Positions 19,373 through 52,722 of a stretch of DNA of 62,227 nucleotides are shown here, one piece after another. Both the position numbers and the translations under genes were made by a program. This DNA is from Candidatus Poseidoniaceae archaeon (GTDB lineage Archaea; Thermoplasmatota; Poseidoniia; Poseidoniales; Poseidoniaceae). The stretch is from assembly GCA_964228815.1 (NCBI GenBank), contig CAXRAL010000046.1, positions 1-62,227 on the forward strand, in the 5' to 3' direction. The notes under the pieces are model-generated. The model was not told where the DNA came from and searched no databases. It saw only the letters and a list, made by a program, of their open reading frames with translations. Positions within the stretch are counted from its first letter, which is position 1. The number at the start of each line of letters is the position of its first letter.

Positions 19373-21145
19373 TTAACGACCTTCACCGGTTTGCACCGAC
19401 CACAACCGAGCATAGATTCCTCCGAGGCTCACCAGGTCGTCGTGCCGCCCGTCTTCCATCACTTCACCTTCTTCGAGGACGACGATGCGATCGGCGTTTC
19501 GAACAGTCGAAAGGCGGTGTGCGATGACAATGGTTGTTCGGCCTCTCGAAATTCGCTCGATGGAACGTTGGAGTGCCGCTTCTGTTTCGTTGTCCACTGC
19601 CGACGTGGCCTCGTCGAGGATGAGCAACGGGGCATCTTTGAGTACGGCCCTGGCGATGGCCACCCGTTGCCGCTGTCCGCCCGAGAGGCGGTGGCCACCT
19701 TCTCCGACCAGTGTCTCCCACCCGCTGGGTAAGCTTGCGACAAAAGCGGCGGCTTCAGCGATTTCCGCCGCTTCAATCACTTCTTCATCCGTGGCGTCGG
19801 GTCGCCCGTAGCGAATGTTTTCGAGGATGGTGGTTGGAAAGAGCGTGATGTGTTGGTCAACGAGGGCAATGGAAGATCGGAGTGAATGAAGCTTCCACGA
19901 TTCAATGGGTTGGTCGCACCATGTTACATGTCCTTGCTGAGGTTCTGCAAATCGGAGCAAAAGACGAACAAGCGAGGTTTTCCCGGCACCCGTTGAACCC
20001 ACCACGCCGGTGGTTTTCCCGTGTTCAAAGGTCAATGAAAGGTGGTTGAAGAGCGGTTCTCGGTCGGGATAGCCAAACGAAACATCTTCCAGAGCGATGG
20101 ACGAGGTTTTCCTTGTTTCGAGATCAGGTGAGTATTCTCCTTGCTGAAGTTCAATGGGCGAAGCCAACACGTCCAGCACACGGGTGGACGAGGCCATGGC
20201 GCGCTGGTAGAGATCAAAGGTCTCTCCAAGCCTCGTGAGGGGCCACAGCAAGCGCTGCGTCATGAACACCAACACCGAGTAAGCACCCACGGCCATTGTA
20301 CCTTCAAGGGTGAACCAACCTCCTAGCAGCAGGGTCGCTGTGAAGCCAACAAGAATCGCCATGCGGATGAGTGGCGTGAACGCTGCAGAGAGCCGAATCG
20401 CTTCTCGGTTGGCTTCTCGGTAAGCATCGCTGAGCACTTCTACTCGTCGCAACTCGTTGGCTTCAGCCGTGAACGATTGTACGGTTGACATGCCGGAGAG
20501 GTCGTTTTCCAGAAGCGCGTTCATCTGCCCTGCAGCCTGACGGACTTTGGCGTAGCGCGGTTCGAGGCTCCGCTGGTAGCGGAACGAGCCCCACACAATG
20601 AGCGGGATGGGCAACACGGCAAACAAGGCGACTTGCCAGGAGATGAGCAGGAACACCGCCCCGACAACGACGACGGTGGTGCTGACCTGAAGCAAATCGT
20701 TGGCGCCTTTGTCCAAGAAACGCTCGAGTTGATTGATGTCATCGTTGAGAATGGCCAGAATGTCTCCTTTCTGACGCTCGTCAAACCATGTCATTCCCTG
20801 CTGTTGCACGTGGTCAAACGTGTCCAAGCGCAACTCGTGCTGAACGGTTTGAGCAAGGTTTCGCCAAAGGACACCGTAGAAGTATTCGAACAGCGATTCT
20901 AGGCCCCAAATCAGGAACGTAAGGACCGACAGAGCCACCAGTTGATGCCAGGGATCAACCAGTCCGATGTTGGCGAGCGTCGAATCCTCGCGCAAGACGA
21001 CCACGTCGACGGCCAAACCGATGAGTAACGGTGGTGCGAGGTCCCAGAATTTGTTGAACACCGAACAGAAGGCAGCCAAGCGCACCGTCCCGCGATGCGG
21101 CTTCATGTAATTGAGCAAACGACGGAACGGTCCACCTTCGCCCAT
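19373..21145 (-). CDS. ABC exporter, fused TMD-NBD (MsbA/MdlB-like)
   Basis: TM N-half; [34 protein letters not shown]; start ATG 21145. Confidence 0.92.
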
Positions 21146-21241
21146 GGACGGCCCAAGATGCGGGCCTTTGAGAAGGCTCCCGTTCGCCTTGTGTCGGCGC
21201 AAGCCCTATGCCCTTTCCTCGCTGACCAGCCACCGAGGACC

Positions 21242-22054
21242 ATGAACGTCGGCGAATCCACGGTTTTGGAGAAGGTCTGCCGTCGAACGGACGGCGCTCG
21301 TCACGTCACACTCATTGACCCCGCGAAGCAATCGGCGGAGGTCGCCGCTCAACGGGCCATGGTGGCGGTGGAATGCGGCTCATCGATGATTTTCGTCGGG
21401 GGCTCCACCGACACTCCTGATGACGTTGTTCACGCCACCTGCACCGCCATCCAAGAAGCGTTTGAGTTGCGTATGTTTGCCGCCAGTCAAGACCCGACGA
21501 GTGAGGAATCGATGTGGGACATTCCGGTGGTTCTCTTCCCGGGTGGCGCCCACGCTCTTTCTCCGGCCGCCGATGCCATCACGTTCATGATGCTCATGAA
21601 TTCCACCAAGCGGGCGTTCTTGGTTGGTGAACAGGTTCGTGGAGCGCCGTACCTTGACCGATTTGGCGTCGAAGCGTTGCCCACCGGCTATGTCGTGTGC
21701 GCGCCAGGCGGGCGCGTTGGTGAGGTTGGTGGTGCTGAATTGATTCAATCCACGGACGTGGACCTCGTTCATGCCTATGCGCTGTGCGCCAAGATGTTTG
21801 GATTTTCACTGCTCTACTTGGAAGCGGGCAGTGGCGCCGATGCACCGGTTCATCCTGACCTGATCACCAAAGCCGCATCTGTTGAGGGACTCACCCTCCT
21901 TGTGGGTGGCGGCATGCGGACGGCCGAGGATGTCGCTCGAGCGGTGGAGGCCGGTGCTCAGTGGATTGTCACTGGTACGGTAACCGAAGACGCTTCTTCA
22001 TTGGATGAACTTCGTACTCGCCTTGAAGCACTTGTCGGTGCCTGCACGCCGTGA
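21242..22054 (+). CDS. Geranylgeranylglyceryl phosphate synthase (group II)
   Basis: HVTLIDPAK, VGGST, VVLFPG, YLEAGSGA, VGGGMR, IVTGT; start ATG 21242. Confidence 0.92.
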   Translation: MNVGESTVLEKVCRRTDGARHVTLIDPAKQSAEVAAQRAMVAVECGSSMIFVGGSTDTPDDVVHATCTAIQEAFELRMFAASQDPTSEESMWDIPVVLFPGGAHALSPAADAITFMMLMNSTKRAFLVGEQVRGAPYLDRFGVEALPTGYVVCAPGGRVGEVGGAELIQSTDVDLVHAYALCAKMFGFSLLYLEAGSGADAPVHPDLITKAASVEGLTLLVGGGMRTAEDVARAVEAGAQWIVTGTVTEDASSLDELRTRLEALVGACTP

Positions 22055-22113: not shown

Positions 22114-23385
22114 TCAAGCACCGTCTTCGTCGTCGAAGACCACAGGGTCGCCTGTACCGCCTGGGGAGGGTGGGCGAGGACCGTCCACATCCATACCGGG
22201 TTCGAGTTCGGTTTCTTCGGTCTCGAGCGCCACTTCTTCACCGTCGGCCAGTTTGGCCATGTCGTCGGCGGTTGGGGCTTTGATGGTCCGCTCCATGTCT
22301 GGAGCGTTGGCGTAGAGTTCTCGCTTCAGCTCACGGCTTTCGTGGCTTCGTACGAGTGAAAGGGAATCGGCAAAGACGCGACCCACCACTTCTCGGGTCC
22401 GCTCGCTGCGTCGGGCGGAATGGAGCTCGTGTTCCATGGAACTGCGCTGGTCTTCGAGTTCTCGAAGTTCAGCGGTGCGGTCTTGCAGTGCCGCTTCGAG
22501 GTCCGTCATGGTGAGCGTCATCTGCTGGAGTCGCTCGTCTCGCTCGAACACGTCGTTGTGGAGGCGACGCTCGCGACGTCGCAGCGATTCGTATTCTCGG
22601 TTGCGCTCCAGAAGCCGTCGCTTCAATTCCTCGATTTGTTCGACGAGGTAGTCGTGCTCGGCTGAAACAGACCGTGGCCCTTGCATCACACGTTCGAGTT
22701 GTTCTTCGAGTTCTGCTAGGCGGCGGTCCCGAGCATCGAGCAGACCACGCAGGCGGTCGGCAATGTCTCGAAGACGTTGACGCTCCTCTTCAAGGGCCTC
22801 TGCGGCTGCCTTTTCGACATCGAGTTGGCGCTGGCGTTCATCGACTTGTTGCTTGAGCACACGGACCTCTTCAGCGGTGACTGAGGTGAGTCCTGCATCC
22901 GCAGCCTTCTCAAGTGCCTCAACCATTTGACCGATGCGACCTTCCATCTCACCGATCACTTCGTCCTGTTCAGTGGTCAGCGTTCGAAGTTGGCTGAGTT
23001 CGGTTTCCATGGATGACCGCTCTTGTTGTGAGAGCGAGGACTGTTGTGCGGCCAATTCGTCCCTGCTGTCGGACAGGAGCCGCTCGAGATGGATGATTTG
23101 GGCTTCGTTTTCCTTGAGCGTTTGCTCAGCCTCTGCGAGTCGAGCCACCTCAGGAGCGATGGTGTCTTGGCGCTCCGCAAGATCAAGTTCAACCACGCGC
23201 AGCCGTTGCTTCACAGCGACGAGTTCGTCGTTTCGCTTCCCTAATTCGTCCCAAGCCACGAGGACCTCTTCCACGAGTTGTTCAATGGGGTAGCCTTTGA
23301 GCATCCCCTCAAGGGCCGCACGCTCGTCGTTGGACGACGAACCCACGCGACGGATTCCACCGGGTGACGAACTCTCTACGGCCAT
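22114..23385 (-). CDS. Long coiled-coil protein
   Basis: About 340 aa of E/R/L/Q-rich heptad-like sequence and an acidic Pro-containing tail; start ATG 23385 or 23397. Confidence 0.8.
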   Translation of the reverse strand: MAVESSSPGGIRRVGSSSNDERAALEGMLKGYPIEQLVEEVLVAWDELGKRNDELVAVKQRLRVVELDLAERQDTIAPEVARLAEAEQTLKENEAQIIHLERLLSDSRDELAAQQSSLSQQERSSMETELSQLRTLTTEQDEVIGEMEGRIGQMVEALEKAADAGLTSVTAEEVRVLKQQVDERQRQLDVEKAAAEALEEERQRLRDIADRLRGLLDARDRRLAELEEQLERVMQGPRSVSAEHDYLVEQIEELKRRLLERNREYESLRRRERRLHNDVFERDERLQQMTLTMTDLEAALQDRTAELRELEDQRSSMEHELHSARRSERTREVVGRVFADSLSLVRSHESRELKRELYANAPDMERTIKAPTADDMAKLADGEEVALETEETELEPGMDVDGPRPPSPGGTGDPVVFDDEDGA

Positions 23386-23477
23386 ACGGCAACGCATCGC
23401 AGATTTACCACACTTGAACCTTCCCAAACCTTCGCTGTTGGAAAGGGGGTATTTGCTACCCCCGGACGATAGCCGTC

Positions 23478-24482
23478 TCAGTTGATGGACGTGTACATGT
23501 CATCGGGCATTTCGCTGGCGAGTTTGAGGGCGCCGGCTGCGACCGAGTTGATGGGGTCTTCAACGCACCAAACACGGACATCACCAATGTCAGCGATTTC
23601 GCTAGCAATGCGGTCAGCAACGCCGTCGATGAGCGAACCGCCACCGGACAGGATGATGTTGTTACGGAGGATTTGCTGGTATTCGGGGTCAGCACCGGCG
23701 ACGTTGCGCTTGATGGCGTTGCCGATCTTCGGGATGATGAGCTCACACGCTTCCAAGATGAGGTCGCCGATGTCGACCACCTGGCGCTTTCCGTCAACGG
23801 ACAGCTCCACAGTGACTTCTCGTGCTTCGCCGCCCACGTAGGAGGAGGCTTCCTTCCACTTGCGGACCATGTCCTTGGTCACTTGAGCACCGGTGTACTT
23901 CTTCCTGATGAGTTCCATCAACTGAAGGTCGAGCCAGTCGCCAGCTTCCGTGATGGTGACTTGGTCTTCATCGGTCGGGAAGGTCCCGTAGACACGAGCG
24001 ATGTCGGTGGTACCGGCGCCAATGTCAACGACGATGGAACCTGCAATCTCGTCAATGCCGTAAGCGGTAGCGAAGGGTTCGGTGACCACCATGATGGCGT
24101 TCACTTGGCCTCGGAGGGTGGCCACGAGGTTGGACTTGTCCGTGAAGGAGACGTGGCTTGGTGAGCAGATGACGCCGAGCACCTCGTCGTATTCTTCGGG
24201 GTCCACGGTTTCAAGGAGGTGGGACACGAACGCCTTGGCAGCGGCCAGGTTGGCTTCGTCGTCTTGGGTGACACCGGCGGCCATGGGGCGGTAGAGGTTG
24301 CAGGCGAGCTTGTTCTTGAGGGCGTCTTCGCCGAACAAGACATCTCGACCGAGGAAGTTTCGGGCCACGGGGTCCTTTGGTCGACCGACAACGGTCTCAA
24401 TCGTGTGCAGTTTTCCAGCGCTCGAAGCGATGGTTGATTGGTAGGTTCCTAGGTCAATTCCAACATACAGGCGGTCGCTCAT
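23478..24482 (-). CDS. Actin-family ATPase, MamK-like
   Basis: GIDLGT, VVGRPKD, VVTEPF, VVDIGAGTTDI, EDQVT, PEYQ, LSGGGS, GALKLASEMP; SD GAAGGTGA upstream; strong codon bias. Confidence 0.9.
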   Translation of the reverse strand: MSDRLYVGIDLGTYQSTIASSAGKLHTIETVVGRPKDPVARNFLGRDVLFGEDALKNKLACNLYRPMAAGVTQDDEANLAAAKAFVSHLLETVDPEEYDEVLGVICSPSHVSFTDKSNLVATLRGQVNAIMVVTEPFATAYGIDEIAGSIVVDIGAGTTDIARVYGTFPTDEDQVTITEAGDWLDLQLMELIRKKYTGAQVTKDMVRKWKEASSYVGGEAREVTVELSVDGKRQVVDIGDLILEACELIIPKIGNAIKRNVAGADPEYQQILRNNIILSGGGSLIDGVADRIASEIADIGDVRVWCVEDPINSVAAGALKLASEMPDDMYTSIN

Positions 24483-24486
24483 TTTT

Positions 24487-24548
24487 GTTCACCTTCCCAC
24501 GTGGGATGGTTAACCGAGCATGGCACTGAACTTCAAGGTTCACCTTCC
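24487..24548. promoter_or_regulatory. Repeats upstream of the actin gene
   Basis: Perfect palindrome TCCCACGTGGGA (24495-24506); 11-bp direct repeat GTTCACCTTCC (24487-24497 and 24538-24548), the first copy overlapping the SD. Confidence 0.4.
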
Positions 24549-27699: not shown

Positions 27700-27819
27700 G
27701 GACGGACCACATGCAGGTTTTGCCTCAATCTATCGGTCCCTTGCCCATCTCCCACCTGTTTCCGGCGCTGCGTCTGCGCGCCAGCGCGTTTAAGGATGGA
27801 TGGCAGGTCGGAGGCCCCG

Positions 27820-28092
27820 ATGAAGGCCTATCGAGTCTCAGGAACCGCCCCGTTTGGCAGCCAGCGCCAGCACTTCTCCTACGACCTCCCAGCAGCCGAC
27901 GCCGACGCTGCCACCCACAAGGTGTACTCCACCCTCGGGTCCCGCCACCGCATCATGCGCCGGGCCATCAAGATCGAAAACGTGAGTGAGATTGACCCAC
28001 GCATTTCGACCGAGCCAGCTGTACTTCACCACTTTCGCGACGAGATTGCTGCTCAAGGCGGCCCCATCACCGTGGCTGCGGAAGAAGAGTAA
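27820..28092 (+). CDS. 50S ribosomal protein L18Ae/LX
   Basis: MKAYRVSG...VYSTLGSRHRIMRRAIKIENVSEI; lies upstream of pfdA-ftsY as is usual in archaea. Confidence 0.9.
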   Translation: MKAYRVSGTAPFGSQRQHFSYDLPAADADAATHKVYSTLGSRHRIMRRAIKIENVSEIDPRISTEPAVLHHFRDEIAAQGGPITVAAEEE

Positions 28093-36505: not shown

Positions 36506-37849
36506 ATGGCAACCCACGGTGACCACCCATCGCTTCCGGACCACCTTGAGTCGCTGCTGATGGAGGACGTTCACACGGTGTTCCTGAAAGCCGACTGCCC
36601 GCCGAGAGTCAAGCGAGGTGCCATCGGTTCACTCAAACTTGTTGAAGCAGAATCCTCCGTCGCCAATTGGGACACCCTCACGCTTGAACAGCTCGAGGAA
36701 GACCTCGTTGCCCTGGTGGAAGAGCACCGTCACCGCAGCGATTGCTTTCTTGAAATCGACCGGAAAGGTTGCCGCGTGATTCAACTCGGTGACCTTCGCA
36801 TCACCTCGGCATGGCCTCCGTTTTCCGATGCCCGTGAAATCACCGTTGTACGACCGGTGGCCAAACTCAGCCTGGGCGATTACGACCTCGATCAGCGTTT
36901 GGTGGACCGGCTGCGTAACCACCATCGTGGCGTGTTCATCTGTGGTCGCCCTGGTTCGGGCAAAACCACCCTCGCCCAAGCCATTGCCGAGTACCTTGAC
37001 ACCGAGGTGGGGGCGTTGGTCAAGACGATGGAGGCGCCAAGAGACTTGCAGCTTGCTGACCGCATCACGCAATACGCGCCGCTCGAGGGCGACCTCGAAA
37101 AGACGGCTGAGATCATCTTCCTCGTTCGTCCCGACTTCGTCATCTTTGATGAGGTCCGGCGCGCCAGGGATTTCGAGATCTTTGCTGACGTTCGCCTCGC
37201 CGGTGTTGGGCTGCTTGGGGTGACGCACGCCAACTCCGCCCTCGAGGCCATCCAGCGCCTCATTGGCAAAGTCGAGTTGGGCTTAGTCAGCCAGGTCTTG
37301 GACACCATCCTTCACGTTGAGTCTGGAAAAATTCAGCAAGTGTTGGAGTTGCGAATGACGGTCAAACCACCCACCGGCATGCAGGAAGAACTGGCCCGAC
37401 CGGTCATTGAAGTGGTTGAATTCCCGAGCGGCAAACTCACCCACGAAATGTTTGCTTTTGGCTCCGAAATCGCCGTTGTCCCGCTCGAAGGTCGTGCGAC
37501 AACCAACGATTTGTCTCCCGTAAGGGCGATGGCAAAGGACCGCATTGTCGAGACGGTTCGACAGTGGGTTGGGGTTGAATGTCAGGTCCGGTTTTCAAGC
37601 GATACCTCAGCCGTCATCTACGCTCCCTCAAACATGATTTCCACGTTGGTGGGGCGCGGAGGCGAGAACGTCAAACAACTGCAAAACGAGCTCGGCGGCA
37701 TGAGGCTGAGCATTGAGTCGTTTGACGACATGCCGGAGGGCATGGATCAACCCAACAAGTTCTGGCAGGACAACCGGAAGAAAGGAAACGCTTGGGAAAA
37801 CCCACGTCGGAAAGGAAAATCCGCTCGTAGGCAACAACGAAAGCGTTGA
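36506..37849 (+). CDS. PINA/MJ1533-like ATPase with KH domain, lacking the PIN domain
   Basis: PPFSDAREITVVRP, GRPGSGKTT, KTMEAPRDL, DEVR, GVTHA, ARPVIEV; KH loop VGRGGENV. Confidence 0.85.
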   Translation: MATHGDHPSLPDHLESLLMEDVHTVFLKADCPPRVKRGAIGSLKLVEAESSVANWDTLTLEQLEEDLVALVEEHRHRSDCFLEIDRKGCRVIQLGDLRITSAWPPFSDAREITVVRPVAKLSLGDYDLDQRLVDRLRNHHRGVFICGRPGSGKTTLAQAIAEYLDTEVGALVKTMEAPRDLQLADRITQYAPLEGDLEKTAEIIFLVRPDFVIFDEVRRARDFEIFADVRLAGVGLLGVTHANSALEAIQRLIGKVELGLVSQVLDTILHVESGKIQQVLELRMTVKPPTGMQEELARPVIEVVEFPSGKLTHEMFAFGSEIAVVPLEGRATTNDLSPVRAMAKDRIVETVRQWVGVECQVRFSSDTSAVIYAPSNMISTLVGRGGENVKQLQNELGGMRLSIESFDDMPEGMDQPNKFWQDNRKKGNAWENPRRKGKSARRQQRKR

Positions 37850-38570: not shown

Positions 38571-40649
38571 ATGTGGGAACATCGCAGTGTATCAGACAAA
38601 TCATTCGTGGAAACCGGGCGGATTTTGCCCAACGAGACCTACGTCAAGTTGATGGACGAAGTGGAAGCCGTGGTCGCACGGGCACAGGACGACAAGTTCG
38701 ACGCCGAGACCTTCATGACCTACATTCCTCGCAAGGGACCGTGGGAAGAAATTCCAGCTTCAGACCATTCCAAGGCTGACGCTCGAACCCGTTACATCGG
38801 TCCGGCGAGCGCCAAACTCCTCAACACCAACTTGGTGCTCGGATCGTCGTGGATCGACTCGGACCGATTCAAGTACGAGCGAAGGATCACCAACATCGCT
38901 GACTATCTGAAGCAGAAGACCATCATCAACGCCAACATGTGGACGCCCAAGCAGTTGTTCACCACGCAGACGTTCTTCTTCTGTTCAACCGGCGACGAAG
39001 AGCGCATGGGTGGTGCCATCCTTGAGGGCGACACCCGCAACGACGACCACCTGTTCCTTGGAACGGAAGACAAGGAATTCCCCGAGTGGGAAGTCATTCT
39101 CTGGGGCCTCGGCCACCGCGGCGTTGTCCCCGACTCCGACCCGCTTGACCGCGTCTATTACCCGTCGTTGATGCACCGCAACGTGTCCTTCAACAACCGA
39201 TTGGGATGGACCCGCTACTCTCCTGCTGGTTTCGGCAAGGACGCTTCAGGCTACTTGATGACTCGCCCCAACACCTGGATCTGGCCTGCTGTCAACGGCA
39301 ACCGAGAAACGGCCACGGCCTTCAACCTCCTCGTGAACCTCCCCGACCGCAGCTCCTCGTTCGGTGAAGAAGGCATTTCGGACGTCTTCCTGACCACCGG
39401 CAAGACCTCGCTTTACACCATGATGGGCATGATGCAATCCTCAACCGTCCGCCAAGCCTTTGGTGCCGGTTCGGAAATGGTTCCTCTGGAATTCCACTGC
39501 ATTGAACCCGGTCTTGACGAATGGATTGGTAATTCCAGCGACGAGGACAAGTACAGCCGTCTGTTCGAAGTGTGCGCCACGCTCGGCTACATCCTGACCG
39601 ACCCACACATCGGCACCCTTGGCGGTGCTGCCAAGCGACGTCGCCTCATCATGTACCCCTCAGACCAAGGCAACCTCCTGACCTGTGCCAACGCCAGCCA
39701 GGTGGCCGACCACGCCCTCAAGTCCAACTACGATGCAACGGTGTTCACCAAGCTCGACCAGGCCGACTTCATGAACCGTGTCACCCGCCGATTCAAGGCC
39801 TACGCCGATTTGGTCGCCGCCTCCGATGTCGCTCGTGGCGCACGATGGATCAGCCAAGCCGATGTTGACGGCGAGAAGATGATTGGACCTAACGTCCACT
39901 CCATCCTTTCCGTTCGCGGCTATGACATCCTGAACATGCAGGAGTACCTGAACACGTTCAACGACGTGTCAGCAGCTCCCGAGCGTTTGATGCGCCGCAT
40001 CATCCAGACCGTGGCCACCAACGCCCTGAAGACCGTCTACCCCGTTGACATGTTGGGTGAATCCTCCGGGCCTGCACCGTTTGAACACATCTTCAATTCG
40101 CCTGATGACAACCCGCTTGTGTACTACACCGACGTACGATTCCTCGTGCCGACCTCAATTGACAAGCTGCGCTTCCAGACCGCCGCCCGCGGTGCTGACC
40201 GTGGTCGCATGCGTGAGGCCTATGCTTCGCTGACCGCCGCCGACCCCATGACCAGCCTGTCCATTCAGGACCTGTGTCTGCCGTTCCTGGCCGACCTGGG
40301 CGAGGATACCTGGCAGACCGGTACGGGCATCACGGAGAACGAGATCGTGGTGGAAGTCACCATGGCCGTGAACCCAGCCCGTGTTTGGCGCTCCTACCTT
40401 GAGCCCACCATCAAGGAAGTCTTCGACATGCCCAAGGGCGACAAGGGCACGGCTGCTCAACTCTGGGGCGATGTGTTCATGACCAACGAAGTCCTTCACG
40501 ACAAGATGTGCAAGGACGGCAACGAGCACTACCTCAACCTGCTCAAGATGGCCTACCACTGGTCCAACAATGAGGCTCAGAAGGAGCACAAGTTGGGCAA
40601 GCACGCCAAGAAGCCGGCGGCGAAGAAATCCACGACCAAGAAGAAGTGA
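38571..40649 (+). CDS. 692-aa hypothetical protein, possibly a remote PEP-carboxykinase-like fold; Lys-rich tail
   Basis: SD GAGGTGA; strong C-ending codon bias; TTGKTSL; C-terminal KKPAAKKSTTKKK. The ORF is secure, the function is speculative. Confidence 0.75.
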   Translation: MWEHRSVSDKSFVETGRILPNETYVKLMDEVEAVVARAQDDKFDAETFMTYIPRKGPWEEIPASDHSKADARTRYIGPASAKLLNTNLVLGSSWIDSDRFKYERRITNIADYLKQKTIINANMWTPKQLFTTQTFFFCSTGDEERMGGAILEGDTRNDDHLFLGTEDKEFPEWEVILWGLGHRGVVPDSDPLDRVYYPSLMHRNVSFNNRLGWTRYSPAGFGKDASGYLMTRPNTWIWPAVNGNRETATAFNLLVNLPDRSSSFGEEGISDVFLTTGKTSLYTMMGMMQSSTVRQAFGAGSEMVPLEFHCIEPGLDEWIGNSSDEDKYSRLFEVCATLGYILTDPHIGTLGGAAKRRRLIMYPSDQGNLLTCANASQVADHALKSNYDATVFTKLDQADFMNRVTRRFKAYADLVAASDVARGARWISQADVDGEKMIGPNVHSILSVRGYDILNMQEYLNTFNDVSAAPERLMRRIIQTVATNALKTVYPVDMLGESSGPAPFEHIFNSPDDNPLVYYTDVRFLVPTSIDKLRFQTAARGADRGRMREAYASLTAADPMTSLSIQDLCLPFLADLGEDTWQTGTGITENEIVVEVTMAVNPARVWRSYLEPTIKEVFDMPKGDKGTAAQLWGDVFMTNEVLHDKMCKDGNEHYLNLLKMAYHWSNNEAQKEHKLGKHAKKPAAKKSTTKKK

Positions 40650-48687: not shown

Positions 48688-49944
48688 ATGGACGATGAAC
48701 AGTCCGAGGAGTGGCCCGCCACCGATTGGGACGAATCCGCCTCCGACGACGCGGCAGCGAAGGCTAACGGTCCGGACGAAAAGGCTCAGGCATCGTCCGA
48801 AGACACTCCCACGGAGGACAACGACTCGGCGAGCGAAGTTGAGAACGACGGCGCAGCCGACGGCGATGACACGCCAGCCGACGCAGAACCGGATGAAGCA
48901 GAGGCGCAGGGCGACTCGGAGACAGCAGCCCCACCTTCTGCCACCTCGTCAGCCATTGAGGCTTGGACGTTGCCGATTCGGGCTGCGCCAATCCTTGCCC
49001 TTCAGGGTGAAGACGTGACTGAATTTCCGCTCAGTCAGCACCGCAGCGGGCTGGAATCAACATCGCTGATCATGGACGATGAATTGATGCGAATCGTTGA
49101 AGCGCGGTACGACCCCGATGGTGTTCGCCGGCTGAACGTCCGTATGGCACTGGTTAAAGAGCACATTTCCGGATATTCCCATACCCATCTCGACCTGTTT
49201 CAGAAGTTGCAGGCCGTGTGGTGGGGCGCCATTGGATTCGGCCTCGTGATGGCGACCGGCTTTGCTCAAAGCATCCTCGCTCTCGGTGGCGGGGCGTTTG
49301 TGCTGACGGGTGTAGCAGGTCTGTTGATGGCTCAATTGGACCTCCACCGCCTTTCGTTTTCCGACCACGGCGGACGCCACGATTTCTACCTCTCCGGTTG
49401 GCGACAGGAGCCGTACTTGATTCACAACAGCACAGCTTTGCTGGGTCCCGCATTCGTTGAATTCTTGCGCACGTCGTCCCTTGACACGCAACACATCGAT
49501 GCGGTCATCAAAGCGATGGGCGCACCCGCTCAACCCGCTCCTGAACTGACCTCGTCTTCCGAAAAAGCAGCACCAGCGGCCCTTCCTGTAGCGGCGGAGC
49601 ACGACAACGCCTTGGTTCCCATGAGCGTGGTTCAGCCTCAGGCATCCATGCCCTCCATGGTACCCGCAGGGCCGGCCATCAGTGGCCCTCCAACCTCGAT
49701 GGTGGTATCCACGCCAACGTCGGCTGCCATGCCGCCCTTGCCCCCACCACCGGCGGTCACAACGCCTTCGCCACCCAAACCACTTCCGGCACCACCCGCA
49801 CCGACAACACTCCCGGCGGCCCCGCTCCCACCGCCACCTGCGCCAGCGGTTCTTCCACCTGCACCGCTCCCGCCCGCTCCGTTGCCCCCTCCCCCATCCA
49901 AGGCGGCCGTTGACGAGGATGCGCTGTGGGACGATCTCAGCTGA
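48688..49944 (+). CDS. Membrane protein with acidic N-terminus and poly-proline C-terminus
   Basis: Acidic low-complexity N-terminus, two TMs, PPPP-rich tail ending VDEDALWDDLS. Confidence 0.75.
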   Translation: MDDEQSEEWPATDWDESASDDAAAKANGPDEKAQASSEDTPTEDNDSASEVENDGAADGDDTPADAEPDEAEAQGDSETAAPPSATSSAIEAWTLPIRAAPILALQGEDVTEFPLSQHRSGLESTSLIMDDELMRIVEARYDPDGVRRLNVRMALVKEHISGYSHTHLDLFQKLQAVWWGAIGFGLVMATGFAQSILALGGGAFVLTGVAGLLMAQLDLHRLSFSDHGGRHDFYLSGWRQEPYLIHNSTALLGPAFVEFLRTSSLDTQHIDAVIKAMGAPAQPAPELTSSSEKAAPAALPVAAEHDNALVPMSVVQPQASMPSMVPAGPAISGPPTSMVVSTPTSAAMPPLPPPPAVTTPSPPKPLPAPPAPTTLPAAPLPPPPAPAVLPPAPLPPAPLPPPPSKAAVDEDALWDDLS

Positions 49945-52722
49945 TCACGCCTTGACGCCACCAGCCGAAGGAAGGTGGACGCTGCGGGCCAGTTTGGCCA
50001 CCTCTTCGCTCAGTTCGTTGATGTCCGATGGAAGGGGCCAGTCGTCAAGGTCCAATGGAAGGTGATGGCCCAGCCCGGGGATGCGCTCGAGCGCGACACC
50101 CAATTCCGCGGCGTCCGTGAGAAATTCACCACCCGCTCCCGAATGCCGTGCTTCAAGCCGGCGCCGCATCCAGCGCTTGAGCGGCGCAACGAGTTCACAA
50201 AGGGTGCTGAGCATCTTAGCCCGTGAGGCATCGTCTCCATCTCCCTGAGGCAACAGCCGGAGGGTCAACCGAAGCAGCCGTCCAACGCGAACGTCCCTTG
50301 GCGAGATGTTCACCTCGGCTGCCAATCGCCGCCGAAGGTCAGGGATGGCCTCCATCTCGCGTTGCTCAATGGCCAACGCTTCATCCGGCAGGCCCAGCAA
50401 CGCCACCAATTCCGTTAGCGCGGTCAGCGCTTTGGCCGTACCCTTTCCGGAGGGGACGACCTCAACTTCGCGAACCTCTTCTGCAGGTGCATCCTCTACC
50501 ATTGCCTCCCCTTCAGGTACATCCTCTTCAAGCGCTACCGGGGTTGCAACGGGTTGTTCTTCCTCAGCCTCAACCGGTTCTGTTGGCGATGGCGAATCGG
50601 AGAGCGAGGTTGTCGCCTCGCGCTCCGGCGAAACCTCCACCTTTTCGGACAATGCTTCGCCGGGCTGTTCCTCGTTGCTGCGCAGGGGTTTGTCCTCTTC
50701 AGTGTCCGTTGTTGACTTGTCGTCCATGGCCTCAAGCATGGCTTCATGGGCGTCATCGAGGGTTGTTGCAGGCTGGAGCACCTTTCGGTCTTGGTCTTCA
50801 GAAACCGGAATGAGCGTGGGGTGTTTTTCCACTGGCATCCAAAGGCTGAGCGTGTAGCTTTCGTCTTCCACCGGGCGAGCGGATAACAGGGTGGTGTAGA
50901 CTGGAATTTGTTGACTGAGGTAGGCCAAACGGTGAGGTTGCTGACACATGGCTTCAACGCTCAAACCCAAGTCGACATGACGGTTCCACGGCAGGGTCGC
51001 AAGCCTTCGGCGGAGGACATCGTGGCGAAGTAAATGGGGACGCGCCTCGCTGAGTTCCCTGGCGACCCTCACCAATTCACCCTTGACAGCTGTTCGCCAT
51101 TCATCAACGTGCCAACCTTGTTCGTGAAGCGCATCGAGTTCTTGTTCAACGGACGTTCGCATTCGTTCCAACATGACGCCGTTGTGGGTTGTAGCGTTGG
51201 CAGCTCCGTTTGAACGCGTGAGATCTGCCACGTGAGCCTCGAGTTCTCGGAGGTTCATCTGGTCGGTGGAGATTTCTCGTTCCAGCACGCCGGCGCGACG
51301 AAGGGCCGCCAATTCCTCGTTGAGCATGACACGGTGCCGCTCAGATCGTCGTTGTGCACGCTGAAGATGACCTTGCATTTCTTCGATAACCTCAGCATCA
51401 ACGTCTTCGCTGGCGAGAAGTTGGAGTCGCAGGAACGTGTCTTCTTGACCAGAGAATGACGTGTCGAGGGCATTGAGTTCGTTCATCAGCGACACCCGAG
51501 AGTCCCATTGACCCCGTTCAACGGTCATGCGTTCCATCGCGTTCATGGGATCGTCGAACACCCGTTGTCGCCAAGCACTCACGTCCAAACCAGCATGCTC
51601 GTACGATTCCAACAACGCTAAACCGTCCAGTTCGAGTTGCTTCCACAACCCATCCATTTCGTCAACGATGTCTTGGAGTTCCTCCGTTCTGTCAAGGTGA
51701 CCCAGCAGCGTTTCCGAGGCCGCCGTTTGAGCAGGCCAGTGCCGAGCAAACCGGTTCCAGCGTTCCACGAGCGCAAGGTGGCGCTCAACCGAGGTTGCCA
51801 CCGTGTCATGATTGGCTTCCCATGCCATCAAATCGTTGGGGTGCAAATCACCTTCATGCGGGAAAACAATGCCTTCTGCTCGCCATGCATGAATCGCATC
51901 AGAAAGCACTTGCCGGCGCTGCTCCAATGCCTGGGCTAAGGCTTGGATTTCATCGGTCAATGCGTCGAGTTCAGACGCTTCTTCCACGTTCTGCATCCCG
52001 TTGCAACGTTGTTCGAATTCGGTCGCCAAATCTGGATCAAACGGTTGAATCAATTGAACGGCAGCCAGTCGGACATGTTCCCGCTTGGCGTGGAACGTCT
52101 GCCATCGCTCAAGATCCTGCAGTCCTTCAAGCAGTGGACGCACACCCAAGTCGCCAACAGGATAGCCGTGCCCCCTGAGTCGTTCAGCACCAGCCTCAAT
52201 CAGTTGACGTTGGCGGGTTTCATCCGCTTCGATGGTTCGCAGGTGGCGAACGATTTCATCCAACCGTTCGGGGGATTCAAAGAGGCGATGAAGGGGCACG
52301 ACGGCCGGGAGGCTCGAAACGTCCAAGTTCATCAAACGAGTGAAGAGGTTGTCCCAATCGTTGCCGTTGCCCGCTTCAAACCAAACTGATTTGCTCCTGC
52401 TCAACGGCGGTTCCCACGAAAGGACGCCTCGTAGATGTCGTTCAAATTCAACGACGCTCGCCTCAACCGTGAACGGGTTGTTCAATGCCGAGTGAAGGGC
52501 GCGCAAGCCTTCATCGGCCCGCCCCCCCAGCTCGATGGCTCGGAATCGCTCATCAAGTTCAGCGGCCGTTTCACGACGCTGTTCAAGCCATGCGAGGCGT
52601 TCTTGGGTGCCACCTTCGTGTTCAGAAAGAAACGTCACCATCTCATCGTGGGGGAATCCGAACTGGGCCAGCGATGCGAGGCGAGCCTCAATATCGTCGC
52701 TCCCCGGATGCGCCTCGCTCAT
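49945..52722 (-). CDS. 925-aa helical-repeat hypothetical protein
   Basis: Recurrent LxxxG[FYWLI]xVxx[LW]-like turns between charged helices; acidic linker before a C-terminal domain. Confidence 0.75.
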   Translation of the reverse strand: MSEAHPGSDDIEARLASLAQFGFPHDEMVTFLSEHEGGTQERLAWLEQRRETAAELDERFRAIELGGRADEGLRALHSALNNPFTVEASVVEFERHLRGVLSWEPPLSRSKSVWFEAGNGNDWDNLFTRLMNLDVSSLPAVVPLHRLFESPERLDEIVRHLRTIEADETRQRQLIEAGAERLRGHGYPVGDLGVRPLLEGLQDLERWQTFHAKREHVRLAAVQLIQPFDPDLATEFEQRCNGMQNVEEASELDALTDEIQALAQALEQRRQVLSDAIHAWRAEGIVFPHEGDLHPNDLMAWEANHDTVATSVERHLALVERWNRFARHWPAQTAASETLLGHLDRTEELQDIVDEMDGLWKQLELDGLALLESYEHAGLDVSAWRQRVFDDPMNAMERMTVERGQWDSRVSLMNELNALDTSFSGQEDTFLRLQLLASEDVDAEVIEEMQGHLQRAQRRSERHRVMLNEELAALRRAGVLEREISTDQMNLRELEAHVADLTRSNGAANATTHNGVMLERMRTSVEQELDALHEQGWHVDEWRTAVKGELVRVARELSEARPHLLRHDVLRRRLATLPWNRHVDLGLSVEAMCQQPHRLAYLSQQIPVYTTLLSARPVEDESYTLSLWMPVEKHPTLIPVSEDQDRKVLQPATTLDDAHEAMLEAMDDKSTTDTEEDKPLRSNEEQPGEALSEKVEVSPEREATTSLSDSPSPTEPVEAEEEQPVATPVALEEDVPEGEAMVEDAPAEEVREVEVVPSGKGTAKALTALTELVALLGLPDEALAIEQREMEAIPDLRRRLAAEVNISPRDVRVGRLLRLTLRLLPQGDGDDASRAKMLSTLCELVAPLKRWMRRRLEARHSGAGGEFLTDAAELGVALERIPGLGHHLPLDLDDWPLPSDINELSEEVAKLARSVHLPSAGGVKA

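Follow-up and report, generated by a model that had tools for sequence, protein, structure and literature searches.

A MamK-like actin and its coiled-coil neighbour as a candidate cytoskeletal module of Poseidoniales

MamK is the magnetosome actin of magnetotactic bacteria and, in the parts of the literature covered here, works with partner proteins, namely MamJ, McaA/McaB and the coiled-coil Mad proteins. MamK relatives also work outside magnetotaxis, as described for BeeR, a three-stranded tubular actin of Verrucomicrobiota whose hallmark, in the sections of that paper covered here, is a disordered N-terminal extension of 30–50 residues (PMC11929497). Actin homologs of haloarchaea include salactin and volactin, and the covered portion of the salactin paper names MamK as the nearest subfamily of salactin. 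Here we describe a locus in a 62,227-nucleotide (nt) stretch of DNA from a Candidatus Poseidoniaceae archaeon of the order Poseidoniales (assembly GCA_964228815.1, contig CAXRAL010000046.1, positions 1 to 62,227; hereafter the window), in which the gene for a 334-amino-acid (aa) MamK-like actin, actin A, is followed on the same strand, after a spacer of 92 nt, by a gene for a long coiled-coil protein, CC (Table 1). Weighing the evidence presented below, we lean slightly towards regarding the two genes as a two-part cytoskeletal module of Poseidoniales, with actin A as the filament and CC as its putative partner.

As far as the covered parts of these sources go, MamK relatives outside magnetotaxis (BeeR), archaeal actins (salactin) and MamK with coiled-coil partners are already known. 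New here are the archaeal lineage, the paralog pair of actins and the two partner families without relatives. The locus points to an archaeal cytoskeleton that is undescribed but not unprecedented. Actin, MreB and the cytoskeleton find no mention in the main text of the main Poseidoniales comparative-genomics papers, and our literature search returned no paper linking Poseidoniales with MreB or actin in this sense. Marine Group II, to which the window belongs, is an uncultured group that counts among the most abundant surface-ocean archaea, and to our knowledge nothing is known of its cell biology.

Closest relatives of actin A

Among the NCBIfam families scored against actin A, MamK (NF040964) came first with 339.9 bits, followed by BeeR (212.5), MreB (84.2) and salactin (31.6). 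When the genome (1.99 Mb in 92 contigs, 84% complete) was searched with the MamK model, actin A received 340.1 bits and a second actin, paralog B, 361.1. These values are to be read against family cut-offs of 400 bits for MamK, 530 for BeeR, 400 for salactin and either 293 (PRK13927) or 365.75 (TIGR00904) for MreB. MamK was also the top solved relative. In the PDB search, entry 5jyg scored 216.9 bits over residues 3–330 (E 3.9e-63), the MamK entries 5jyg, 5ljv and 5ljw all lay at 216–217 bits, 8r2n (entry title 'Actin/actin family protein', which we presume to be BeeR from that title only) reached 142 bits, and MreB about 54 bits (about 1e-13). The phosphate-1 DLGT (D10, G12), phosphate-2 DIGAGTTD (D153, G155) and adenosine GGGS (G280, G281) motifs are intact, with D10, G12, D153, G155 and G280 invariant in the actin alignment A2, and they align to the nucleotide motifs of MamK. 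The original prediction, made from the sequence alone, had seen an actin-fold ATPase with intact motifs of this kind and had named a series of MamK motifs (VVGxPKD, VVxEPF, DIGAGTTDI, EDQVT, PEYQ, NI..GGGS and GALxLAxExP), all of which prove colinear with MamK 5jyg. Overall, orthologs of actin A are only 64–75% identical. Its start lies five residues ahead of the first phosphate motif, so that the extension typical of BeeR, its second-best family match, is absent.

The public name of the protein, 'rod shape-determining protein MreB', would make this an ordinary MreB rod-shape system. The name follows from Pfam's broad MreB_Mbl model, which actin A passes with 83.3 bits against a cut-off of 27. 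The NCBIfam MreB models, on the other hand, are missed by a wide margin (84.2 versus 293 bits for PRK13927 and 71.7 versus 365.75 for TIGR00904), MamK scores four times higher, and trees rooted on Escherichia coli MreB place actin A inside the MamK/BeeR radiation. Pfam scans of the 51 long open reading frames (ORFs) of the window found no MreC, MreD or magnetosome-type gene there, which agrees with the statement in the original prediction that the window has no mreC, mreD or other mam gene. In the genome as a whole, PF06723 matched nothing but actin A, paralog B and a frame of 640 aa, probably DnaK, and hence no canonical MreB. On sequence evidence actin A is MamK-like and not MreB, as had been predicted, with family scores (339.9 versus 84.2), PDB scores (216.9 versus ~54) and trees in agreement. 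The MreB reading is already contradicted by the same three comparisons, and we regard it as highly improbable.

Trees were built from 105 rows and then from 66, with E. coli MreB as outgroup. The rows comprised Poseidoniales A and B sequences, seven other Thermoplasmatota and representatives from a 1.84-billion-protein search labelled by NCBIfam score; named MamK (including Magnetospirillum), salactin, crenactin and Ta0583 sequences were not among them. Left out of the 66-row tree were near-duplicate A and B sequences, 10 of the 19 long-N-terminal rows, 8 of the 13 BeeR rows and 11 divergent low-scoring rows. In this tree A (100/100), B (100/100) and their union (100/98) are well supported, which makes A and B sister paralogs. 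The BeeR rows group by themselves (100/100). The three top-scoring MamK representatives (446–508 bits) likewise form a clade of their own (99/92), elsewhere than A+B, and the nodes in between are weak (53/78, 25/8, 76/86, 44/69). What these trees show for actin A is a position inside the MamK/BeeR radiation, in a clade apart from the highest-scoring MamK representatives.

These results also bear on the reading of actin A as a true magnetosome MamK. MamK is its best family and best solved relative, with colinear nucleotide motifs over residues 3–330. Yet actin A stays below the MamK cut-off (339.9 versus 400 bits), belongs to a separate clade, has an archaeal host and lies in a window with no magnetosome-type gene among its 51 long ORFs, and CC and the zinc-ribbon protein described below are unrelated to any known family. 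We give this reading almost no credence. Salactin fares no better as a family assignment for actin A. Although it is likewise an archaeal actin homolog, and although its description as a MamK relative in the original prediction agrees with the covered part of the salactin paper, actin A reaches only 31.6 of 400 bits on the NCBIfam model and 27.0 against a cut-off of 27.1 on the Pfam Salactin model. Volactin appeared only among precomputed weak domain matches of relatives.

The sister group of A+B (98/90) consists of proteins of 523–1232 aa with long low-complexity N-terminal extensions. In P0122–P0136, including locus L152:8001-10364, low-complexity or coiled extensions of 190–900 residues are fused to the actin domain. 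One contig from this clade is probably bacterial, since its genes include UvrC, an M23 peptidase and a glycosyltransferase of PEP-CTERM type. The 768-aa representative P0168 is a fusion of FtsZ and MamK. Beyond Poseidoniales, an actin relative at E <= 1e-20 was found in only 7 of 237 sampled Thermoplasmatota genomes.

Features of the coiled-coil protein

The CC gene was first called as an ORF of 437 aa from a TTG codon (22114–23427, minus strand). Comparison of 16 orthologous loci moves the start to the ATG at 23385, so that the protein has 423 aa; stop codons interrupt the frame 5' of this position in relatives, and public gene calls run to 421–427 aa. An AlphaFold2 model (predicted local distance difference test score, pLDDT, of 80) contains helices at residues 34–163, 171–235 and 240–360, followed by a disordered tail. 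In the heptad analysis 0.44 of all 28-residue windows lie at or above 0.6, more than in any of 200 shuffled sequences (mean 0.046, maximum 0.167), and the tail (361–423) holds 19 D+E against 4 K+R. The predicted neighbour of about 420 aa with an acidic tail is thus borne out.

Conservation was followed in alignment A1, which holds 20 CC sequences from across the order and from both families. A head motif (AAL.GML.GY..QLV.EVL.AW.EL) is followed by AGLTS.TA.EVR at the first helix break, by a core at residues 236–285 that is near-invariant around a GPRS break (GPRS.SAEHDYLVEQIEELKRRLLERNREYE.LRRRERRLH.DVFERDE), by RTREVV..F.DSL and, after a variable linker that is some 26 residues shorter in family f3, by an invariant PGG. 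Because of these features CC is not a generic coil. Its core is near-invariant although actin A itself is only 64–75% identical between orthologs. Upstream of CC stands a short intergenic motif, GAAGGTTCAAG, which is kept in all families (17 loci), occurs once in the window and stays with CC where other genes are inserted. No consensus base pairs were found in the actin-CC spacer or at GAAGGTTCAAG in a search for RNA structure.

Known proteins offered no relative. Scans of Pfam (E <= 0.01) and NCBIfam gave nothing beyond generic coiled-coil noise and no DNA-binding domain, a profile search of the PDB, started from A1, had no match below E 0.4, and a fold search with the CC model gave nothing at E <= 0.001. 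The CC profile matched 59 of 301 sampled genomes of the phylum, all of them Poseidoniales, and 0 of 237 outside the order. A language-model feature search placed CC near crescentin rod clusters (0.92, with 146–147 of 256 features in common, which is weak by the tool's own guide), and the other look-ups of this kind returned only its own clusters. Homology of CC to the crescentin rod family (PF19220) was not found, this weak feature-space proximity standing beside the lack of any Pfam match at E <= 0.01. Rejected was SMC, or 'chromosome segregation ATPase', the name in JGI records, which CC matches with 29 bits versus 567 and in the coiled-coil part only. Kinship with the N-terminal extension of the sister-clade actins (hhalign probability 0.3) and with the charged downstream neighbour of other Thermoplasmatota actins (likewise 0.3) was discarded as well. 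No MamJ match was seen in the Pfam and NCBIfam scans, whose libraries may lack a MamJ model. Of the proposal that CC is an intermediate-filament-like or adaptor partner, the heptad coiled-coil rod stands, and a detectable relation to any known adaptor or intermediate-filament family does not. In Mad20/23/25/26, McaB and crescentin, as the covered literature has it, a long coiled-coil protein likewise lies beside or works with an actin-like filament, but the Pfam, NCBIfam and PDB searches revealed no similarity of these proteins to CC, which has its own invariant core and PGG tail.

In crenactin-arcadins and ParM-ParR, the partner binds the actin-like filament by a short terminal peptide. By analogy, a similar terminal-peptide logic is suggested by the tail of CC, which is conserved and tethered. 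A complex prediction pairing actin A (A2) with CC residues 384–423 (A1) carries no weight for or against this, its score being 0.00 in two runs made with the tail only and without controls.

Distribution of the two genes and competing explanations

Co-occurrence was followed in 151 Poseidoniales genomes. An actin match was present in 98 of these, with two or more matches in 94, and the distribution was uneven: 74/74 genomes of family f1, which we take to be Poseidoniaceae, 2/2 of f2 and 21/74 of f3, which we assume to be Thalassarchaeaceae. The genera g12, g13, g14, g15, g17 and g22, with genomes of 1.3–1.6 Mb, had none. Actin A was found in 97 genomes, that is, all but one with only B-type matches (G017) and including one in which the gene is cut by a contig end (G105). 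Full-type CC occurs in the same 97 genomes, and the other 54 have neither; the count includes G001, where membrane and surface genes fill an insertion of ~8.3 kb ahead of CC and the contig ends after the first ~60 CC residues. Where actin A is present, CC lies downstream on the same strand in 124 of 125 loci, with no more than 120 nt between the matches in 119 of them, although not all of these loci count as independent, since the window itself accounts for three and two of the collections overlap. The linkage of the coiled-coil gene to the actin across Poseidoniales, as foreseen in the original prediction, is therefore real. The order LX / S8, A, CC / PcrB, in which S8 is a subtilase and LX and PcrB are flank genes, is kept in the two families alike.

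RNA-derived contigs, from four libraries in as many studies, match the two genes with 90–99% identity; one of them spans 23375–23876 and another 23074–23498, so that the actin-CC spacer is covered. As evidence for expression this is weak, since the contigs give no strand or transcript ends and DNA carry-over is possible.

The actin-less genomes are informative with respect to the parts of CC. In 3 of the 4 examined (G027, G023 and G013) the LX-PcrB site holds only an ORF of 162–164 aa, which matches the CC profile over residues 4–156 (hhalign probability 97.9, E 3.5e-13); no short CC ORF was found in the fourth (G009). The PcrB flank is common to genomes with and without actin, and in G027 the LX gene directly abuts the short CC gene. 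Used as a query, the window's CC gave weak matches to short ORFs in 28 of the 54 actin-less genomes, and with the CC profile 10 actin-less genomes (g12, g14, g15, g17) matched at model positions ~9–160 only, in frames of 144–179 aa. Residues 164–423, which are also the most conserved part of CC, were matched only where actin A is present. Given the gene order S8, A, CC-N, CC-C, where CC-N and CC-C are the N- and C-terminal parts of CC, loss of S8 and A together with CC-C while CC-N is kept takes two events. Loss of CC-C accompanies loss of the actin and CC-N stays, which marks residues ~164–423 as the actin-linked part, whereas residues 1–163 can stand alone, since the short protein survives in relatives that lost the actin.

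On this basis we propose that actin A, as a non-magnetosome member of the MamK/BeeR branch, would form ATP-dependent filaments, as expected by homology to MamK, and that the CC rod of three long coiled-coil helices may serve as a filament scaffold, anchor or regulator. Residues 1–163 would constitute a self-standing module. The part from 164 to 423, in which a near-invariant Arg/Glu-rich core surrounds the GPRS break and PGG opens the acidic tail on its tether, would depend on the actin, so that the C-terminal two thirds of CC would act on or with A filaments. The putative module sits with a surface-anchored S8 protease and co-occurs with an unlinked module of actin B and a double zinc-ribbon protein. 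Because S8, A, full CC, B and the zinc-ribbon protein are all missing from the small-genome genera (1.3–1.6 Mb), the system would be accessory and not core cell-cycle machinery. Most likely it would set cell shape or size, or position something inside larger cells. A link to motility was considered and dropped, as the actin-bearing genera g10, g11 and g19 lack archaellin (PF01917), which the actin-less g17 and g22 have.

Several observations weigh against the two-part module. Actin A lies under the MamK family cut-off. Adjacency alone is weak evidence because the whole LX-S8-A-CC-PcrB stretch is syntenic across the order; adjacent genes can go in a single deletion whatever their function, and the actin-less genera may form one clade, in which case the co-loss would stand for a single lineage with a genome reduced by about a quarter. 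Genes stand between actin A and CC in G108, G102, G001 and genus g18, large surface-protein genes among them, and the loci without close linkage carry insertions of 0.7, 1.5, 3.9 and 8.3 kb or have CC split. A shared transcript is not required, since CC has its own conserved upstream motif, and the N-terminal third of CC evidently has an actin-independent role. The synteny, the inserted genes, the motif ahead of CC and the persistence of the N-terminal module in genomes without any actin support an explanation in which A and CC are neighbours by conserved gene order only, A forming filaments, CC acting elsewhere (for example in chromosome organisation or division) and the loss of CC-C reflecting streamlining. 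What speaks against it is that the genomes with full-type CC are precisely those with actin A, that the C-terminal two thirds of CC were lost separately from S8 and A and yet in coincidence with them, and that the CC core is more conserved than actin A. We rate mere neighbourhood as unlikely, though less so than the other alternatives.

Paralog B enters the comparison with a partner of its own. It has 341 aa and is 48% identical to A. In 13/13 loci a 338-aa protein with four CxxC pairs, arranged as N- and C-terminal zinc ribbons, is encoded directly upstream of B on the same strand; here the pair lies at G000:C67:15805-17951. This protein occurs in 95 of the 151 genomes and in 0 of the actin-less genera. 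The A and B modules share their genus pattern although unlinked, being ~1 Mb apart in G003, where the genome is one contig. Family searches assigned it nothing beyond a weak zinc-ribbon match, and a fold search gave only TM scores of ~0.2 to phage and flagellar chains, which we took as noise. In G003 itself B appears in two abutting pieces (residues 1–152 and 154–341; L149:5436-6457), reflecting a stop, a frameshift or a sequencing error.

Another reading is a DNA-partition machine of the salactin or ParM type, with A and B filaments moving the DNA, CC and the zinc-ribbon protein serving as adaptors and the CxxC pairs binding DNA. Salactin is said, in the original prediction, to be linked to DNA partitioning. 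That actin homologs take part in DNA segregation is stated in the salactin paper, which also places MamK nearest to salactin. The terminal zinc ribbons would suit such adaptors, and in one other Thermoplasmatota genome (G285) the actin is followed by a protein with a DnaA-ATPase domain. CC, by contrast, contains no DNA-binding domain in the Pfam and NCBIfam scans, entire genera do without either module although they too have to segregate their DNA, the salactin model gives only 31.6 bits, and the fold search with the zinc-ribbon protein returned nothing. A role in DNA partition is possible but unsupported, and we consider it improbable.

The S8 subtilase upstream of actin A has a signal peptide, D-rich repeats, a C-terminal membrane anchor and a short cytoplasmic tail. 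Its ortholog (E <= 1e-40) is found in 98 of the 151 genomes with the genus pattern of the actin and adjoins A in the coordinate pairs compared, and a C-terminal hydrophobic segment is kept in 10/10 orthologs. The cytoplasmic tail was rejected as a conserved docking site, being 7–40 residues long and unrelated among the 10 orthologs. One actin A-CC insertion encodes a 1229-aa surface protein; in G108 (L128:7255-10944) and G001 (L127:4110-12366) large surface or membrane genes, including a second S8 protease, lie between the two genes, as if the site were a hot spot for genes of surface proteins. A bolder extension of the two-part module, which we offer as a long shot, would be a multi-part actin cytoskeleton peculiar to Poseidoniales, with two paralogous MamK-like filaments, each served by a dedicated partner whose family occurs nowhere else. 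The A filament would be coupled through the actin-dependent part of CC to the envelope, to S8 or to other large surface proteins, so as to organise the surface, shape and particle-feeding apparatus of the cell, and streamlined open-ocean genera would have discarded the system. If true, a cytoskeleton would organise the cell surface of one of the most abundant planktonic archaea.

Independently of that extension, with this locus the MamK/BeeR branch, as known so far, reaches outside the bacteria and outside magnetosomes. The locus amounts to a defined and expressible gene set of two MamK-like actins, CC, whose actin-linked part can be separated, and a zinc-ribbon protein. The genera with and without the system form a natural comparison, to which the size and shape of cells in the sea could be linked.

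Genomic surroundings and further observations

The two minus-strand ORFs for the actin-fold and coiled-coil proteins lie where the original prediction had placed them, and the Shine-Dalgarno sequence it had noted ahead of the actin fits GAAGGTGA, an SD-like element (Table 1). The neighbours of actin A in the window are the S8 protease, CC, PcrB, an ABC transporter, a rhodopsin and LX.

Table 1. Coordinates and basis of the features described (window positions unless another locus is named)
Feature	Position	Strand	Basis or remark
Actin A, 334-aa MamK/BeeR-superfamily actin-like ATPase	23478..24482	-	ATG start; ORF and profile scores
CC, 423-aa Poseidoniales-specific coiled-coil protein	22114..23385, including stop codon	-	start from ortholog comparison
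SD-like GAAGGTGA	24489..24496	-	6 nt ahead of actin ATG; putative function, from sequence
CC N-terminal module, residues 1-163 (head motif and helix 1)	22897..23385	-	kept alone in actin-less genomes
CC actin-linked part, residues 164-423	22117..22896	-	putative link, from co-occurrence with actin A
Near-invariant CC core, residues 236-285	22531..22680	-	alignment A1, 20 sequences, both families
Invariant PGG, CC residues 408-410, head of acidic C-terminal motif	22156..22164	-	alignment A1
Intergenic motif GAAGGTTCAAG	23413..23423	-	~30-35 nt 5' of CC start; kept in 17 loci
S8 subtilase, 1036 aa	24589..27699	-	upstream neighbour of actin A; Pfam Peptidase_S8 91.4 bits
PcrB/GGGP synthase, convergent downstream flank	21095..22054	+	Pfam PcrB 131.4 bits; gene probably starts near 21242
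Ribosomal protein L18Ae/LX, upstream flank marker	27796..28092	+	Pfam Ribosomal_L18A 51.1 bits
B and zinc-ribbon pair, locus L151	6785-7810 and 7936-8952	-	

One genome (G135) of the otherwise actin-less genus g21 carries A and a piece of CC on a small contig (C52) with 84% identity to Poseidonia, and a short CC elsewhere (C2). The small contig is probably a binning contamination.

Other Thermoplasmatota place their MamK-like actins in different settings. In G291 (L135:3365-9160) and G256 (L137:4607-11595), which belong to another family, the actin lies within a chemotaxis cluster in the order CheY, CheA, CheD, actin, an unknown protein of 318–341 aa, a CheC-like protein and CheB, an arrangement suggestive of a role in chemosensory arrays for some archaeal relatives of MamK. 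In three others (L131:4746-6035, L132:161-1831 and L133:7423-9279) a highly charged protein of 429–618 aa is encoded 3' of the actin on the same strand. These proteins match no Pfam family and have no detectable relation to CC; they may be analogous actin partners.

Elsewhere in the window, three long ORFs are without a Pfam family at E <= 1e-5, at 38571–40649 (plus strand, 692 aa), 48688–49944 (plus strand, 418 aa) and 49945–52722 (minus strand, 925 aa). The first of these adjoins a T2SSE-type ATPase at 36506–37849.

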